In this document: positions 991-62,100 of the stretch, one piece after another
How positions within the stretch are numbered: position 1 is the stretch's first letter
Layout: every line of letters begins with the position of its first letter
Assembly: GCA_045651525.1 (NCBI GenBank)
Contig: JAZRSO010000036.1
Location: 2,016 to 66,015 of the forward strand
DNA length: 64,000 nt
Reading direction: 5' to 3'
Origin: Candidatus Enterousia sp.
Lineage (GTDB): Bacteria; Pseudomonadota; Alphaproteobacteria; Rs-D84
Program-made: the position numbers and the translations under genes
The notes under the pieces: model-generated
Seen by the model: the letters and a program-made list of their open reading frames with translations, nothing else
Database searches by the model: none
Told to the model about the DNA's origin: nothing

Positions 991-1036
991 GTTTGAAAAT
1001 CATAAAGCAGAGAACCGGCATCCCCATAAATTTTGT

Positions 1037-1065
1037 TTGAAAATAAGTTTTATCTATGTTACATT
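1037..1065 (+). promoter_or_regulatory. Sigma70-like promoter, cassette copy 1
   Basis: TTGAAA (1037-1042), 17 nt spacer, TACATT (1060-1065). Confidence 0.5.
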
Positions 1066-1279
1066 TGTCAGTGAATCCATAGCGATGTGGGTTTGGGCTG
1101 TAGTAAGCTCGTAAAACGTACGGTGCAGTATCGCATCGTAAAATATATCATTGGTGTATTCTGCACCGTTATGCTGCGACCTGTATGGTTGGGCAGCCGC
1201 ATGTTCGTAAGACTGCGGAGTCATTACGTTTTATGATTTACTAACTGCCCGACCACTTTTTTAAGTGGTCTTGTTTTTT
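1061..1279 (+). ncRNA. Unclassified structured 5' leader / attenuator-type RNA, copy 1
   Basis: Five hairpins plus terminator GACCACTT-tttt-AAGTGGTC and T-run (1251-1279). TGGTTGGGCAG (1186-1196) is complementary to CTGCCCGACCA (1245-1255), a candidate antiterminator. There is no long ORF. The boundaries are approximate. Confidence 0.6.
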
Positions 1280-1295
1280 ACCAAAGGAAAAATCT

Positions 1296-1490
1296 ATGGA
1301 ACAAATAATAACGGGGCGCGACATTGAAAAATTCAGACAAGAACACAATTTTCATATCTTTGTTATGTGTAACGTTTTAGGAATTGTAACAGAACTGGAA
1401 TATCATAAAATCATCGCATATCGAAAGCGCTTAACCGTATTTCAACAAATCTCTTTTATTGAATTCAAGTCCACATTCCGCAAACAATAA
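1296..1490 (+). CDS. 64-aa hypothetical protein, weak XRE-type helix-turn-helix resemblance
   Basis: AAGGA, 7 nt, then ATG. Product MEQIITGRDIEKFRQEHNFHIFVMCNVLGIVTELEYHKII... It has its own terminator and is duplicated at 1774-1968 with a single change (F19L). Confidence 0.55.
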   Translation: MEQIITGRDIEKFRQEHNFHIFVMCNVLGIVTELEYHKIIAYRKRLTVFQQISFIEFKSTFRKQ

Positions 1491-1515
1491 AACGCTCCTT
1501 GTGGGTGTTTTTTAT

Positions 1516-1544
1516 TTGAAAATAAGTTTTATCTATGTTACATT
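1516..1544 (+). promoter_or_regulatory. Sigma70-like promoter, cassette copy 2
   Basis: TTGAAA (1516-1521), 17 nt spacer, TACATT (1539-1544). Confidence 0.5.
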
Positions 1545-1757
1545 TGCCAGTGAATCCATAGCGATGTGGGTTTGGGCTGTAGCAAGCCCATAACAAGAAC
1601 GGTGCAGTACTGCATCGTAAAACAATCGCAGATGTATTCTGCACCGTTATGCTGCGACCTGTATGGTTGGGCAGCCGCATGTTCGTAAGACTGCGGAATC
1701 ATTACTTGTTATGATTTGCTAACTGCCCGACCACTTTTTTAAGTGGTCTTGTTTTTT
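1540..1757 (+). ncRNA. Unclassified structured 5' leader / attenuator-type RNA, copy 2
   Basis: Same architecture as 1061-1279, with the terminator hairpin plus T-run ending at 1757. Differences from copy 1 are concentrated in the loops and apical part of the hairpins. Confidence 0.6.
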
Positions 1758-1773
1758 ACCAAAGGAAAAATCT

Positions 1774-1968
1774 ATGGAACAAATAATAACGGGGCGCGAC
1801 ATTGAAAAATTCAGACAAGAACACAATTTACATATCTTTGTTATGTGTAACGTTTTAGGAATTGTAACAGAACTGGAATATCATAAAATCATCGCATATC
1901 GAAAGCGCTTAACCGTATTTCAACAAATCTCTTTTATTGAATTCAAGTCCACATTCCGCAAACAATAA
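1774..1968 (+). CDS. 64-aa hypothetical protein (paralog of 1296-1490)
   Basis: Identical RBS spacing. The protein differs from copy 1 at one residue. Confidence 0.55.
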   Translation: MEQIITGRDIEKFRQEHNLHIFVMCNVLGIVTELEYHKIIAYRKRLTVFQQISFIEFKSTFRKQ

Positions 1969-1993
1969 AATGCCCCTTGCGGGCGTTTTTTTT
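1969..1993 (+). terminator. Intrinsic terminator after second micro-ORF
   Basis: Stem TGCCC/GGGCG with loop cttgc, followed by a T8 run. Confidence 0.7.
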
Positions 1994-3097: not shown

Positions 3098-3562
3098 ATG
3101 GCACGTATTGATTATCAAACATTACTAGATAACGCATTAAAGTCAGTCGTCAAAGATGCACTGATTCATGCACAGTTTAATGGATTGGGTGATGGAACGC
3201 ACTTTTTTATAACTTTCCGTACACGCGACGCGGGGGTTGTTCTGCCGGACTTTTTGCGCATCAGATACCCAGATATTATGACAATTGTATTGCAATATTC
3301 TTATAACAACCTGCATGTATCTGACAAAGAATTTGGTGTACAGCTGACGTTTGACGGTCGCCCGTTCTTTATTCGCGTTCCATTTTCTGCGCTGGTTGAA
3401 TTCAAAGACCCATCTGTTGACTTTATGTTGTCTTTTCAAACAAAGTCACAAACGCAGGCCGCAGATAACGATATGGAATTACCGCTGGACGAAAAACCAG
3501 ATACTGTTCCAGACCCAGGTCGGGTTGTATCACTGGACGAATTTAGAAAAAACAGAAAATAA
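3098..3562 (+). CDS. sspB: ClpXP adaptor SspB (alphaproteobacterial type)
   Basis: HFFITFRTRDAGVVLPDFLRIRYPDIMTIVLQ...VPFSALVEFKDPSV closely resembles my recollection of Caulobacter SspB-alpha. The C-terminal tail is acidic. Confidence 0.75.
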   Translation: MARIDYQTLLDNALKSVVKDALIHAQFNGLGDGTHFFITFRTRDAGVVLPDFLRIRYPDIMTIVLQYSYNNLHVSDKEFGVQLTFDGRPFFIRVPFSALVEFKDPSVDFMLSFQTKSQTQAADNDMELPLDEKPDTVPDPGRVVSLDEFRKNRK

Positions 3563-3589
3563 AAATACCGGTGTTTGCCGGTGTTTTTA
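3561..3589. terminator. Bidirectional terminator between sspB and queH
   Basis: Stem ATACCGG/CCGGTGT flanked by an A-run and a T-run. Belongs to the CACCGG...CCGGTG terminator family. Confidence 0.7.
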
Positions 3590-4132
3590 TATCTTTCTGA
3601 TACTAAATTCACAGCCACAATAATTCTGACGATAAAATTCTGATTCTCGATTTATCTGAATACGCAAATTTTCATCCCATTTTATCGGCACATATTCAAT
3701 ATCACCACAAACATTTTGGGCGGCGGTGTCAACCTGTGGCTGACTTTTATGACGCGACACACCTAATACACTTGCAATCGCATTATATCCATTTTCACGC
3801 GCAAATTTTTCCGCACGACGAAATCTGTATTCAAAACACAGACTGCAACGCGGACCACGTTCAGGCGCAGTTTCATAACCACGCACCGCATCGCGCCATG
3901 CGTCATGGTCGTATTCCAGCACCGCATATTTTACACCCAAACTTTCACAGTATTTAATTTGTTCCTGCATACGTTTTGTATATTCTGATTCTGGAAAAAT
4001 ATTTGGGTTGTAAAACAAGACAATAAAGTCAGATACGCCATCTATTTTATTTTCTGCCAGTTGTTTTATTGCACCTGACGAACATGGCGCACAACAAGAC
4101 AATAAAACAAGACGTAGTTTATTATCTGACAT
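3587..4132 (-). CDS. queH: Epoxyqueuosine reductase QueH (DUF208)
   Basis: LLSCCAPCS, FYNPNIFPESEY, RCSLCFEYR and the C-terminal YRQNYCGCEFS are QueH hallmark motifs. Confidence 0.85.
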   Translation of the reverse strand: MSDNKLRLVLLSCCAPCSSGAIKQLAENKIDGVSDFIVLFYNPNIFPESEYTKRMQEQIKYCESLGVKYAVLEYDHDAWRDAVRGYETAPERGPRCSLCFEYRFRRAEKFARENGYNAIASVLGVSRHKSQPQVDTAAQNVCGDIEYVPIKWDENLRIQINRESEFYRQNYCGCEFSIRKI

Positions 4133-4664
4133 TTTGCAACATTTTTGCTAATATTTCTGGGATTGTTCCGGTTGTTTTTGGATAAATCTGTTTCATATCC
4201 TTATTCACAACAATATCATTATTATCCAATTCATGCCAAAAAACATTTGTTGAAACAGGAAATACACATGGTTTTGTGGCACCCATTTCTTTCAGACCAA
4301 CACAATAATCTGTGTAAACACCTGTCTGAATCGCAGGTACATTTAAATTCATACTATTTATTTCAGGAAAAAACCTGAATCTTGGATTACTGTTTTTAAT
4401 TTTTTTCGCACTTGTGATTTCTTCTGCAACCCATAATGATAACTTTTTTGTTTTAACATTATGTGTTTTTAGACCTGAACTCATACAGTGATTTTCTTTT
4501 ATTGTTTTGCTCAGTTCTATTTTATAAACATTTACATTAACGAATAAAAGTTTCTTTATATCTTCAATGTTTTTGAAATTACTTTTTATTGTCAACCCGT
4601 CCAAATATAAACGCAGCGCTAACACTTCGTGCACTCCTGTGTTTTCTTTTTTAAATTCGGCCAT
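4122..4664 (-). CDS. Hypothetical protein (180 aa)
   Basis: AAGGGA RBS. Overlaps the queH start by 11 nt and sits between metG and queH. The C-terminal VVNKDMKQIYPK resembles CVID(S/N)K(S/T)LKQIYPP of the genes at 56797 and 57316. Confidence 0.5.
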   Translation of the reverse strand: MAEFKKENTGVHEVLALRLYLDGLTIKSNFKNIEDIKKLLFVNVNVYKIELSKTIKENHCMSSGLKTHNVKTKKLSLWVAEEITSAKKIKNSNPRFRFFPEINSMNLNVPAIQTGVYTDYCVGLKEMGATKPCVFPVSTNVFWHELDNNDIVVNKDMKQIYPKTTGTIPEILAKMLQNVR

Positions 4665-8263: not shown

Positions 8264-8340
8264 TGGTGGGTGGTATTGGGCTCGAACCAACGACCTTTAC
8301 GATGTCAACGTAACGCTCTAGCCAACTGAGCTAACCACCC
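8264..8340 (-). tRNA. tRNA-Val (anticodon GAC), CCA encoded
   Basis: Reverse complement reads GGGTGGTTAGCTCAGTTGG...TTACG-TTGACAT-CGTAA...GGTTCGAGCC...CCACCCACCA. Confidence 0.9.
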
Positions 8341-8581: not shown

Positions 8582-8606
8582 GATAAATCTCCTATGTATT
8601 TTTTGT

Positions 8607-8770
8607 AAAAAAAAAGACCACATTTAAAAGTGGTCGGGAGTTCATACAAATTTGACTACACAAATCCCGCACACCTTACGATGTGCAGCATCCCGACCAT
8701 ATGGTCGGGACATTTGTTATCAATAAAGTAGTCAATGGGGTATGAAGCCCGTTCACTAACAAATGTCTGA
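8607..8770 (-). ncRNA. Unclassified structured leader / attenuator-type RNA, copy 3 (diverged)
   Basis: Shares the 5' box ACATTTGTTAGTGAA (8766-8752) and the terminator CCCGACCAC...GTGGTC plus T9 (8635-8607) with copies 1/2. It has hairpin CCCGACCATATGGTCGGG, whose 3' arm can pair with the terminator 5' arm. Upstream promoter is TTGAAT-17-TATAAT. Confidence 0.55.
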
Positions 8771-59177: not shown

Positions 59178-62100
59178 ATGGCATACCCAAAAACAGACCT
59201 GCGTGCAGATTTCACCGCACTGGAACAGCAAGTATTACAATACTGGCGTGAAAATAATACCTTTGATAAGACTTTGCAAAAAACAAAACAAGGGCATCCA
59301 TTCAGTTTCTTTGACGGCCCCCCATTTGCAAACGGTATTCCACACTGGGGACATTTGGGCGTTACTGTGGTAAAAGATATGATATCACGTTTCCAGACAA
59401 TGAACGGCAGATATGTAAACCGTGAACTGGGATGGGATTGCCATGGTTTGCCTGCGGAAAATTCTGTTGAAAAAAAGGTTGGGAAATCTGCCAAAGATAT
59501 TGTTGCAAAAGACGGAATTGACGCGTTCTGTAATATGTGCAGAACAGACGTTATGACATATACAAATGAATGGGATAAATTTATTGAACGTATGGGTCGC
59601 TGGGTAAAAATCGGTGATGAATACGGCTATAAAACCATGAATAAAAACTATATGGAATCTGTAATGTGGACATTAAAAACACTGTACGACAAGGGCTTGT
59701 TGTACAAAGATTACAGTGTAAATCCATATGACTGGGTAAACGGTACTGTGATTTCTAATTCCGAAGCATCCAGTGACTATCGCGAAATTGTTGATGATGC
59801 AGTGACTGTTTGGTTTGAACTGGAAAATGGCGACCGCGTTATTGCATGGACAACAACACCATGGACATTACCTGCGAATTCTGCGTTGGCGGTAAATCCA
59901 AATATGGAATATCTGCGTATGCAAGACGAAGATGGCAATGTTTATATCGTTGCAAAAACCAGATTAAAGGCGTATGAAAAACAATTCGCAAATGCAACAG
60001 AAGTTGAATGTATCAAGGGTTCTGATTTGGTTGGCAAACACTATACGCCACTGTTCCCTTATTATGCAGGACAATCTGATTTATTATTCCAAGTTATACC
60101 AGCAGATTATGTATCTGATTCTGATGGTACAGGTATTGTTCATATCGCGCCTGCGTATGGTTCCGAAGACTTTTGGGCGGCAAAAAATGTTAACCAACAT
60201 TTCCCTGTTCTGTTGAATGTTGATGACTATGGAAACTTTGACGACAGTGTTGTTGACTTTGCGGGCGAAAATATATTTGCTGCGACACCACGTATTATGG
60301 ATTGGTTAAAGCAAAATGGAAAACTGGTCAAAAAAGAACAATATAAACACAGTTATCCTTTTGGCGACCGCAGCAAAGAAAAACTGATTCAGCGTGCGAC
60401 AAATTCTTGGTATATAGACGTTCCAAAAATCAAAGATAAATTATTGGCAAACAACGCAACTGTAAATTGGATCAGCGCTGGCGAAAGATTCCGCACATGG
60501 ATAGAAGGCGCGCGTCCTTGGTCAATATCACGCAATCGTTTCTGGGGTATGCCATTGCCAATCTGGGAACGTGACGGCGAATTCAAAGTATTTGGTTCAA
60601 TCGCAGAATTGGAAGAATTCTTTGGTGTAAAGGTTGATGACCTGCACCGACCAACACTGGATAAACTGACACGTGATGGTTGGACACGTATATCAGACGT
60701 TTTGGATTGCTGGGTCGAAAGTGGTTCAATGCCATGGGCATCACTGCACTATCCATTCGAAAACAAAGACAAATTTAACGCAACATTCCCAGCTGATTAT
60801 ATTATCGAAGGACAAGATCAAACACGTGGTTGGTTCTATTCTTTGATGGTATTGGCAACAGCTTTGTTTGATAAACCGGCGTTCAAGACTGTATCTGCAA
60901 ATGGTATGATTGTTGATGAAAATAAAAAGAAGTTTTCAAAATCATTAAAGAACTATGTTGACCCATCAGAACAAATTGAACAATATGGTGCAGACGCTGT
61001 ACGCTTGTTTATACTGGGTTCAAACTTTATGAAGGCAGAACCAGTGCCTGTTGATAAAGAAGGTAAAGTATTTACAGAAGCGTCAAAAACAATTCAAACA
61101 CCACTGTGGAACGCATATCACTTTTTTACACTGTATGCGAACGCAGGAAATGTTGTTGCAAAGTATATGACAAATCCAGAAAAACCAATGGATAAATATA
61201 TCTTGGCTGAATTGAATATGCTGATTGACAGTGTTACAAAATCTTTATCTGAATATAAACCAGATGTCGCTGTCAAAGATATTGTTAAATTCTTGGATAT
61301 ATTGAACAACTGGTATATCAGACGCGGACGCGCACGTATCTGGGACGAAGAACAAGACGCATTTGATACACTTTATACTGTACTGGTTACATTGTGTCGT
61401 GTTTTGTCGCCTTTTGCGCCATTTATATCTGAATTTATATATCGCAATTTAACAGGCGAAGAATCTGTACATTTAACAGACTGGCCAACCGCAGATAAAT
61501 TCGATAAAAAGATTGTTGATGATATGCGTCGCGTACAGTCAATTGTTTCTGTTGGAAATCAATTACGTGAACAATATAAACTGCGTAACAGATTGCCATT
61601 GAATTCTTTGACAATCGCAGGTGCAAATATGCCTGAATATGCAGATATTATCAAAGACGAATTAAATGTAAAATCTGTAAAGTTTGATGAAAATATCGCA
61701 AATGTTGCAGACAGTTTTATATATCTGATTACACCAAAAATTGGCGCACGTCTGGGTGGGGCATTAAAAGATATAATCCCATCTGTAAAACGTGGCGATT
61801 ATGAAGTCAAGGGCGATAAACTGTTGGCCGGTGGTCATGAATTAAACGCAGATGAATTTGAAAACCGTTTAACAATCAAAGACGGTGTAACAGGTGCGGC
61901 ATTGCCAGACAATACTGCTGTTGTTGTATTAGACACAGAATTAAACGCAGAATTGATTGCCGAAGGTTTGGCAAACGATGCGTTGCGTCATATCCAAAAT
62001 ACACGCAAAACAGCAGGACTGGATGTTTCAGACCGTATTGTTCTGACATACAACGCAGACCCAGCTGTGGCGGCGGCAATCGAACAACATAAAAAACACA

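Follow-up and report, generated by a model that had tools for sequence, protein, structure and literature searches.

The small RNA sRNA-Xcc1 is annotated as a trans-acting regulator in thousands of genomes, and its mechanism is unexplained. In Xanthomonas it appears on Northern blots as a discrete RNA of 88 nt and was described as acting in trans (PMC2996969); five tandem copies about 382 bp apart are present in a Xylella island (PMC12189769), and the element is also carried by integron cassettes, transposons and plasmids (10.1101/2025.06.18.660453). It has been located upstream of symE in Xanthomonas integron cassettes and of an ORF6N gene in the APSE phage. Here we describe a structured leader RNA, classed below as an extended relative of sRNA-Xcc1, in a 64,000-nt stretch of DNA (the window) from Candidatus Enterousia sp. 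(GenBank assembly GCA_045651525.1, contig JAZRSO010000036.1, positions 2,016–66,015 of the forward strand). Candidatus Enterousia, to which a search with the RecF protein assigns the window (97% identity to several metagenome-assembled genomes), is a gut lineage within the order Rs-D84 that has not been cultured and has genomes of 0.75–1.0 Mb (PMC12306168). The leader occurs in two tandem units, each ahead of an open reading frame (ORF) of 64 codons. Our preferred reading, to which we assign a probability of about 50%, is that it serves this downstream helix-turn-helix (HTH) gene in cis as a conditional transcription terminator, each unit being a self-contained expression cassette.

The two units are direct repeats (1031–1514 and 1510–1993; plus strand, as are all features below unless marked) with 97% column identity and a spacing of 479/478 nt, as determined by a repeat search and MAFFT alignment. 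This agrees with a first-pass annotation, made from the sequence alone, which had noticed two near-identical units of about 479 bp, each with a promoter TTGAAA-17-TACATT. These sigma70-type promoters, extended by a TG at the -10 box, lie at 1037–1065 in unit 1 and 1516–1544 in unit 2, and the 5'-terminal hairpin of the leader, P1, begins 7 nt past the end of the -10 box in unit 1. Each leader is about 205 nt long and contains no long ORF, the longest being of 49 aa. In unit 1 it ends at an intrinsic terminator of -10.5 kcal/mol, GACCACUU-UUUU-AAGUGGUC plus a U-run (1251–1279, stem-loop 1251–1270), followed by a ribosome-binding site (RBS), AAAGGA, with the 64-codon ORF (1283–1490, ORF 1296–1490) and a second terminator (1489–1511). 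Unit 2 has the same organization, with the leader in the region 1516–1760 (P1 1552–1573, S3 1665–1674, S4 1723–1732, terminator 1729–1748), the ORF at 1774–1968 and its terminator at 1967–1989 (whole element 1774–1993), so the claim of terminators after both leader and ORF holds in both units. The gap between the U-run and AAAGGA is 3 nt (1279 to 1283). There is no space for an ORF promoter in it, and expression of the ORF therefore needs read-through from the leader.

The leaders differ between the units at 18 of 206 columns from P1 to the terminator, one indel included, versus one difference in 195 nt of the ORFs (F19L; unit 2 carries the L19 allele) and no synonymous change. This excess (Fisher p = 6e-5) is close to the earlier count of about 20 leader substitutions and one indel, and F19L is indeed the sole change in an ORF that has its own RBS.

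The leaders of units 1 and 2 fold at -86 and -87.5 kcal/mol, respectively (RNAfold minimum free energy, MFE), and are far more stable than dinucleotide shuffles (z = -7.1 and -6.0). The resulting structure, fold A, opens with P1 (1073–1094), capped by a GNRA loop (GCGA here; GUGA, GGGA or GAGA in relatives). Its backbone is a long-range helix pairing 1095–1120 with 1225–1250, which encloses the P3, S2:S3 and P5 hairpins. The 5' side of the helix comprises S1 (GGGC, 1095–1098), the P2 strand (1100–1107) and the hypervariable P2b strand (1109–1120); on the 3' side, the P2b (1225–1236) and P2 (1237–1245) strands, within 1219–1245, are followed by S4 (CUGCCCGACC, 1245–1254), whose partner is S1 in fold A or S3, over 10 bp, in the alternative fold B. 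Of the enclosed hairpins, P3 pairs CGGUGCAG (1121–1128) with CUGCACCG (1161–1168), its region (1121–1168) containing the conserved GCAUCGUAA; the switch hairpin of the MFE structure pairs S2 (CUGCGACC, 1174–1181) across a loop with S3 (GGUUGGGCAG, 1187–1196); and P5 (CCGCA...UGCGG, 1197–1218) is a reduced form of the P5 arm of the family. Two local hairpins compete with the long-range helix, H1 at 1095–1110 and H6 (AGUCAU/AUGAUU) at 1219–1238. Compared with this structure, the fold first drawn by eye was right in its H2, H3, H4 and terminator, whereas its H1 and H5 (our H6) are mere local alternatives and the dominant P2/P2b helix was missed.

The P3 region can alternatively be read as two similar hairpins, HP-A and HP-B, each followed by U(A/U)A. 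Here (1121–1168; alignment columns 50–125) the mutually complementary hexamers CGGUGC and GCAUCG are repeated, with three and two copies in some family members, and U(A/U)AUC comes after each hairpin. The region allows several alternative pairings and might be a candidate site for an oligomeric RNA-binding protein. The TCGTAA motif, reported earlier as recurrent, has three copies in unit 1 and two in unit 2, but only the copy at 1136–1141 is conserved in the family, as GCAUCGUnA.

The substitutions between the units cluster at 1104–1119 and 1220–1240, which are the two strands of P2/P2b. Three of the changes from unit 1 to unit 2 are compensatory double changes (U1104-A1240 to C-G, A1115-U1230 to C-G and C1117-G1228 to A-U); the others in this helix comprise one G-U to A-U change and two that break pairs in outer P2b (positions 1 and 11). 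The reason given earlier for the preservation of pairing by changes in stems was largely misassigned, as these strands belong to P2/P2b. Adenine mutagenesis of the kind caused by diversity-generating retroelements was rejected as the source of P2b variation, given substitutions of all types.

A search with the P1–S1 junction pattern recovered 2 IMG/VR and 38 metagenome contigs, from gut and rumen metagenomes; after removal of one chance match and two incomplete copies, 43 distinct leaders were aligned with MAFFT. Of L032 and L045 (homologous loci are given L numbers) from the metagenome scan, one is a chance match and the other is truncated. The family, with more than 40 homologues and leaders of about 180–240 nt, keeps both folds, and compensatory changes support them. 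Nearly all 43 leaders reach the fold A architecture by MFE. Across the alignment, 95.7% of fold A cells are paired and 18 pairs are changed on both sides (148 cells), values matched by none of 500 shuffles; a shift of 1–3 columns in the 3' partners lowers pairing to 34–56%. P1 is paired in 99.7% of cells and has two covarying pairs, the S2:S3 switch hairpin is paired in 83%, and a 3-bp block of P2 covaries fully (columns 31/239: GC 23, AU 11, CG 6, UA 2). A sigma70-like promoter precedes every member, its -10 box ending 7–9 nt before P1, and a same-strand ORF with an RBS begins 38–101 nt past S4 in 40 of the 43 distinct leaders whose 3' end is complete (38–63 nt in all but one). That these leaders form an uncatalogued RNA class of more than 40 members, about 200–230 nt in length and missing from Rfam, is well supported.

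In some members, near-identical leaders of a short type are joined to unrelated ORFs (L014, L040, L025, L050, L062, L035 and L033). Their homology spans from about -45 to about 12 nt beyond the terminator, which suggests that promoter plus leader form a portable module. L039 and L055 have a leader in common and diverge immediately past its terminator. L041 carries tandem family members (3101–3325 and 4460–4578) spaced by about 1.25 kb and separated by one ORF, a further natural array of cassettes. The contigs of L014 (IMGVR_UViG_3300029906_000277) and L015 (IMGVR_UViG_3300029904_000303) are classed as viral by IMG/VR.

A covariance model of the 3' domain of the family, R1, which also found the second copy in L041, detects only three copies in the window: the two units, at 72 bits each (unit 2 at 1650–1752, 72.4 bits), and a distant paralogue on the minus strand, RNA-V (8605–8770; R1 match 8612–8712, 47.6 bits, E 2.7e-12). 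A fourth match (59629–59740, minus strand, 14 bits) was rejected, as it resembles coding sequence and has none of the family motifs. Likewise, the pattern CCCGACC-N-GGTCGGG-N-CCCGACC occurred at nine loci of viral contigs (L016–L024), none of which was confirmed by the covariance model. RNA-V lacks P1 and has the closing helix, the CCCGACC hairpin, a hairpin with a UCGUAAG loop, S4, a terminator and its own promoter. Downstream of it are a 55-codon ORF (MAIRYVPYGS..., about 8580–8413, minus strand) and tRNA-Val (8264–8340, minus strand). An 8-mer, CAUCGUAA, is common to the leader hairpin and the anticodon arm of tRNA-Val (8676–8683 and 8297–8304, minus strand); with four occurrences against 2.7 expected, it is probably due to chance.

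The antiterminating alternative, fold B, depends on S3, which is complementary over 10 bp to S4; the first-pass annotation had seen this pairing between the 3' arm of its H3 and 1245–1255, and it is present and conserved, over 10 bp instead of the claimed 11. S4 overlaps the first 4 nt (GACC) of the terminator stem. In the 43 family members the S3:S4 helix is 97.7% paired, with compensatory changes at three columns (C-G in the type of the units, U-A in L048 and two C-G pairs in L049). Positions 9–10 of S3 match S4 and often not S2, and since the outermost S2:S3 pair (column 130/161) is unpaired in 21 of the 43 leaders, the 3' end of S3 follows S4 and not S2. The mismatched end of the S2:S3 hairpin would serve as a toehold, as expected if S4 invades the hairpin.

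In unit 1 the S3:S4 duplex is computed at -18.3 kcal/mol versus -9.5 kcal/mol for the S2:S3 hairpin, and its formation abolishes the terminator (from -10.5 to 0 kcal/mol). With S3:S4 forced, the terminator remnant is 0 kcal/mol in the units and -2.5 kcal/mol on average in the family. At the decision point, with the transcript extended to S4, the energy gap in favour of fold A is 6.5 kcal/mol for unit 1, 3.9 for unit 2 and 6.7 +/- 3.9 as the family mean. The model energies thus suggest that the antiterminator can compete with the terminated state, but only given kinetic help or a stabilizing factor. Unit 2 has a stronger H1 (G-C for G-U at 1109) and a shorter P2b (9 versus 12 bp), both of which tilt it toward fold B. 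H1 is possible in all family members. The leader had been called a textbook attenuator; terminator and antiterminator are mutually exclusive as claimed, but the label overstates the case, the terminated fold being favoured by 4–7 kcal/mol. A pseudoknot containing P2/P2b and S3:S4 simultaneously was judged sterically unlikely from the linker lengths.

Rfam has no match to the leader that reaches a gathering score. The permissive scan of 800–2200 and the gathering-score scan of the whole window returned tRNAs only, with nqrA-II (27 bits), ctRNA and Phe-leader as terminator-only noise. The housekeeping RNAs were also discarded (6S, transfer-messenger RNA including its two-piece form, signal recognition particle RNA and RNase P RNA), there being no model match, ARAGORN finding tRNAs only, and the family being multi-copy and fused to ORFs. 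The closest match to the domain from S3 to S4 is sRNA-Xcc1 (RF02221), with 38.5 bits for L034 and 36.3 bits for L056. In the window, 1188–1261 scores 22.8 bits (E 0.035 in a 121-nt search), short of the gathering score of 53, and RF02221 is not listed at E<=10 in the 1.4-kb search of 800–2200. Three bona fide sRNA-Xcc1 loci (L063–L065) score 69–73 bits with the Rfam model, and in the reciprocal direction R1 matches the true loci at 46.1, 25.4/25.1 and 23.8 bits (E 1e-12 to 6e-6). The first-pass annotation had recognized no known family in the RNA, yet relatives exist, its 3' half being a sub-threshold, reciprocal match to RF02221.

As in sRNA-Xcc1, a three-way junction with two internal hairpins is closed by a G-rich/C-rich helix, GGYCGGGG/CCCCGRCC, which here is S3:S4; the alignment to the Rfam consensus pairs S3 with S4 and AGUCAU with AUGAUU, so that H6 corresponds to the second short hairpin; the tail UUAACUCCCGAC(C)GCC is likewise shared. 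The conserved internal loop of sRNA-Xcc1, AUACAAUA/GAA next to a CCC-GAAA-GGG hairpin, has its counterpart in most family members, whose arm contains an AUA(C/A)AAUA...GAAA internal loop (UAUA(A/C)AA(C/U)A-GGG...CCC-GAAAG), while in the window copies the arm is cut down to CCGCA-UGUUCGUAAGAC-UGCGG. Both elements occur in tandem arrays and 40–55 nt before a same-strand ORF that is variable and often of a mobile-element type. The Enterousia family differs by an additional 5' domain of about 110 nt (P1, P2/P2b, HP-A/HP-B and S2), with strands complementary to parts of the Xcc1-like domain, which they can open (S2 against S3, the 5' strands of P2–P2b against H6 and its flank, S1 against S4), and by a separate intrinsic terminator overlapping S4. 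The loci L063–L065, as read, have no P1, P2, HP-A/B domain or terminator overlapping S4. Since the RF02221 score falls short and the structural features are present, the leader is classed as an extended relative of a known but mechanistically unexplained kind of RNA.

The sRNA-Xcc1 copies lie at 1482–1572 in L063, 1498–1580 in L064, and 1485–1570 and 1710–1780 in L065; two of these loci are on plasmids, and the third is from a 2.17-Mb Neisseria record that is catalogued as a plasmid, carries two copies about 225 nt apart and lacks gene annotation at the site. In the two annotated loci a same-strand ORF follows 40–55 nt downstream, one for a hypothetical protein and one for a protein of the BRO family. 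The label of a trans-acting small RNA may conceal a leader function of sRNA-Xcc1.

The ORF controlled by this putative switch was compared with its homologues in L007 and L001. At a dS of about 0.7 its dN/dS is 0.04–0.10, which identifies it as a real gene under purifying selection; over the same evolutionary distance the leader is 95–97.5% identical and is therefore more constrained than synonymous sites. No Pfam family matches the 64-aa protein at E<=1, the sequence models of HTH_3 and HTH_31 included, and an exact look-up found no record of the identical protein. A single-sequence search returned three near-identical clusters, and a profile search 17 unnamed clusters from metagenome-assembled genomes of Alphaproteobacteria. 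The AlphaFold2 model built on the homologue alignment consists of four helices (pLDDT 91.9), and all top Foldseek matches in the PDB are HTH proteins of the XRE/Cro type: SinR, HigA, HipB, C.BclI, Aca2 and ClgR. Their query-normalized TM-scores are 0.55–0.75 and probabilities 0.85–1.0; the E-values are merely 0.1–0.7, as expected for so small a domain. The predicted structure thus supports an XRE/Cro-type HTH for the product at the level of fold, in agreement with its earlier description as HTH-like, with Pfam silent.

Under the preferred reading, transcription would start just before P1, and the RNA would by default adopt fold A, in which P2/P2b joins the 5' and 3' parts of the leader, S1 pairs with S4, S2 masks S3 and the terminator at 1251–1279 forms; the outcome would be a short RNA and no expression of the ORF. 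In fold B, H1 and H6 would replace P2/P2b, and the 10-bp S3:S4 helix would close the Xcc1-type three-way junction. This would remove GACC from the terminator stem, so that the polymerase would read through into the ORF. The likeliest candidate for the trigger is a factor binding the conserved junction or the 5' domain. The leader would switch in vivo in the direction from A to B, and read-through would be the regulated step. Such an arrangement resembles attenuation riboswitches and T-boxes in its promoter-proximal structured leader with a covariation-backed domain, its mutually exclusive terminator and antiterminator, its promoterless downstream gene and its presence in several copies per genome. 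It differs in that the alternative fold spans almost the whole RNA, not a short expression platform, and in that the downstream genes share no pathway, unlike those that answer to one signal. No riboswitch or T-box model of Rfam matches 800–2200 at E<=10.

Several findings weigh against conditional termination in cis. No ligand, protein or RNA sensor has been identified for it. In the full-length RNA, fold A leads by 11–15 kcal/mol in the six relatives for which this was computed (the valid figures for units 1 and 2 are those of the decision point alone), and its energetic lead means that fold B requires a stabilizing factor or kinetic help. The S3:S4 covariation amounts to 3–4 independent events, and H1 and H6 are invariant or show one-sided changes, which is consistent with fold B and not proof of it. 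The ORFs downstream of the family have no shared function: besides the 64-aa protein they include a canonical XRE HTH protein, EcoRI-type and N6/N4 DNA methylases, signal-peptide or membrane proteins and many orphans, a diversity that is unusual for a metabolite riboswitch. The leaders of L039 and L060 have no downstream ORF, and in L006 (1400–1950, minus strand), whose genome encodes a RecF of 97% identity, RNA-V is preserved at 100% next to an ORF truncated to 26 codons. Together these loci suggest that the RNA may have a function of its own, and the 88-nt Xanthomonas RNA described as acting in trans points the same way.

These findings lead to the strongest competing explanation, which we regard as possible though clearly the less probable one: the leader would be a stand-alone trans-acting small RNA ending at the terminator, the ORF would be expressed by constitutive leaky read-through, and the two folds would mark stages in its maturation or activity. 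In the window units, the positions of promoter and terminator imply an RNA of about 205 nt, and a strong terminator and stable 5' hairpin are suited to such a discrete product; the Northern blot signal of sRNA-Xcc1, the conservation of the leader beyond the synonymous sites of the ORF, and the loci with a truncated or missing ORF are all in keeping with it. On the other hand, the spacing to a same-strand RBS and ORF is fixed in 40 of 43 leaders, and the terminator stem overlaps S4, so that the conserved alternative helix necessarily alters termination. Moreover, no conserved single-stranded seed is evident, and the sole hypervariable segment is internally paired.

The history of the locus bears on the remaining explanations. 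The cassette sits directly between tRNA-Cys (GCA; 885–958, found by ARAGORN and at 58.8 bits by the Rfam tRNA model) and recF, and the genes read around it are tolC-like (outer-membrane efflux family, OEP), recF, sspB, queH and metG. The terminator of tRNA-Cys (962–990) is homologous to those of the cassettes, as is apparent from the mutually homologous segments 957–998, 1481–1522 and 1959–2000 (repeat families D3/D4). At the junction of the units lies a chimeric terminator (1481–1514), whose left half has the sequence of the ORF terminator (CAAACAATAAAACGC) and whose right half (CCTTGTGGGTGTTTTTTATTTGAAAATAAG) has that of the tRNA-Cys terminator, linked to the cassette just as in L004. Other features that unit 2 shares with L004 are the GCC after the -10 box, the L19 allele and GC(G/A)GATG between HP-A and HP-B, and the left junction of unit 1 is of the filler type seen in L001, L003 and L058. 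The sequences are best explained by an unequal crossover that joined the ORF terminator from one allele to the tRNA-Cys terminator from a second, which supports the earlier proposal of duplication by recombination between terminators. The excess of leader substitutions would then be partly allelic and not all later than the duplication.

At the same site the cassette is single in L001, L003, L004, L007 and L058, double in the window, absent from L005 and L009–L011, and wholly inverted in L008. The inverted L008 copy (3480–3920, minus strand), from a related species, comprises a leader and a 61-aa homologue of the ORF with 44% identity. The filler, complete in L005, L007 and L008, is reduced in the window to a remnant (996–1030) with about its first 30 nt. 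In L005 (3700–3945) and L007 (3220–3470) the filler is about 170 nt long and closes with a second copy of the tRNA-Cys 3' end and terminator, a direct repeat that suggests an old att-type integration scar at the tRNA.

The pattern of variation between the units could also reflect a cis switch triggered by a nucleic acid, with P2/P2b as a cassette-specific address, a version of the mechanism that we consider doubtful. An RNA complementary to the 5' strand of P2b, such as the exposed H6 loop of a terminated copy of the same leader, would block P2b and promote fold B. Each copy would thereby exert feedback on itself alone, and divergence of the two units would have served to prevent cross-talk. 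Substitutions are concentrated in P2/P2b, three of them compensatory, and since this helix and the HP-A/B spacer differ although synonymous sites are identical, these segments evolve faster than neutral sites with pairing kept. Cross-pairing is uneven, with -3.0 kcal/mol for the 5' strand of unit 2 and the 3' strand of unit 1 versus -10.9 for the cognate helix, and -7.8 versus -9.0 kcal/mol for the opposite combination; in the family as a whole, cognate P2/P2b strands pair at -7.8 and non-cognate ones at -3.1 kcal/mol (p = 5e-13). Fold B also displays the 3' strand of P2b in a hairpin loop. A helix without sequence constraint is, however, expected to vary and covary anyway, the difference between the units is partly allelic, with unit 2 sharing the L004 variants, and the R1 search revealed no candidate trans RNA elsewhere in the window.

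A role at the DNA level, in which the leader serves a mobile or recombining cassette system as a recombination site or portable promoter module and its RNA fold is secondary, is improbable. It would account for the absence, presence, duplication and inversion of the cassette among close relatives, for the duplicate tRNA-Cys 3' end in L005 and L007, for the fusion of near-identical short-type leaders to unrelated ORFs, and for breakpoints directly after the terminator in L039 and in L006, where the RNA-V locus abuts sspB and not tRNA-Val; the carriage of sRNA-Xcc1 on integron cassettes, transposons and plasmids fits it as well. In being short, mostly single-ORF, tandem and strain-variable, with diverse cargo often of unknown function, the units recall integron cassettes. 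Yet their conserved element is a transcribed 5' leader with a promoter and not a 3' attC site, and their boundaries are ordinary terminators: the unit ends have only 23-nt terminator hairpins and no attC (57–141 nt, RYYYAAC/GTTRRRY cores), no search for an integrase gene having been made in the window or the loci. The presence of G-U pairs and GNRA loops, together with covariation that is strand-specific, argues for an RNA with the sequence of this strand, each copy is preceded by a promoter, and ordinary homologous recombination explains the chimeric terminator.

Phage-type RNA immunity of the P4 CI / P1 c4 kind (CL00128), in which a processed S3 would pair with S2 and S4 as targets, is highly improbable: one segment (S3) complementary to two CYCCCGACC copies (S2 and S4), with pairing that affects termination, a tRNA-adjacent, island-like locus, two members on contigs classed as viral and a weak Rfam c4-2 match (15.6 bits, E 0.81) recall it, but that score is far under the gathering score of 41, there is no sign of processing, no phage genes are seen at the tRNA-Cys–cassette–recF locus, and the members of the family are chromosomal, occur in multiple copies and are joined to a wide variety of unrelated genes.

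In reduced genomes of 0.75–1.0 Mb, where non-coding DNA is scarce, a leader class of this kind is likely to be functional. The compensatory changes between the two units alter the predicted switching gap (6.5 versus 3.9 kcal/mol) and provide a natural pair of alleles for experiments on conditional termination. In the additional 5' domain the Xcc1 fold has an exact antagonist within the same molecule, and this extended relative is linked to a terminator and precedes an ORF. A testable hypothesis follows, in which the Xcc1 junction would represent the "on" position of a cis-regulatory switch that governs accessory genes. Tentatively, and with low confidence, an unrecognized class of cis-acting bistable riboregulators may comprise the Enterousia leaders and, more widely, the sRNA-Xcc1 elements annotated in integrons, plasmids and phages. 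They would provide horizontally acquired genes with a portable promoter-plus-switch that senses a common cellular factor via the junction, the hypervariable "address" helix setting a cassette-specific threshold or allowing control by a copy acting in trans.

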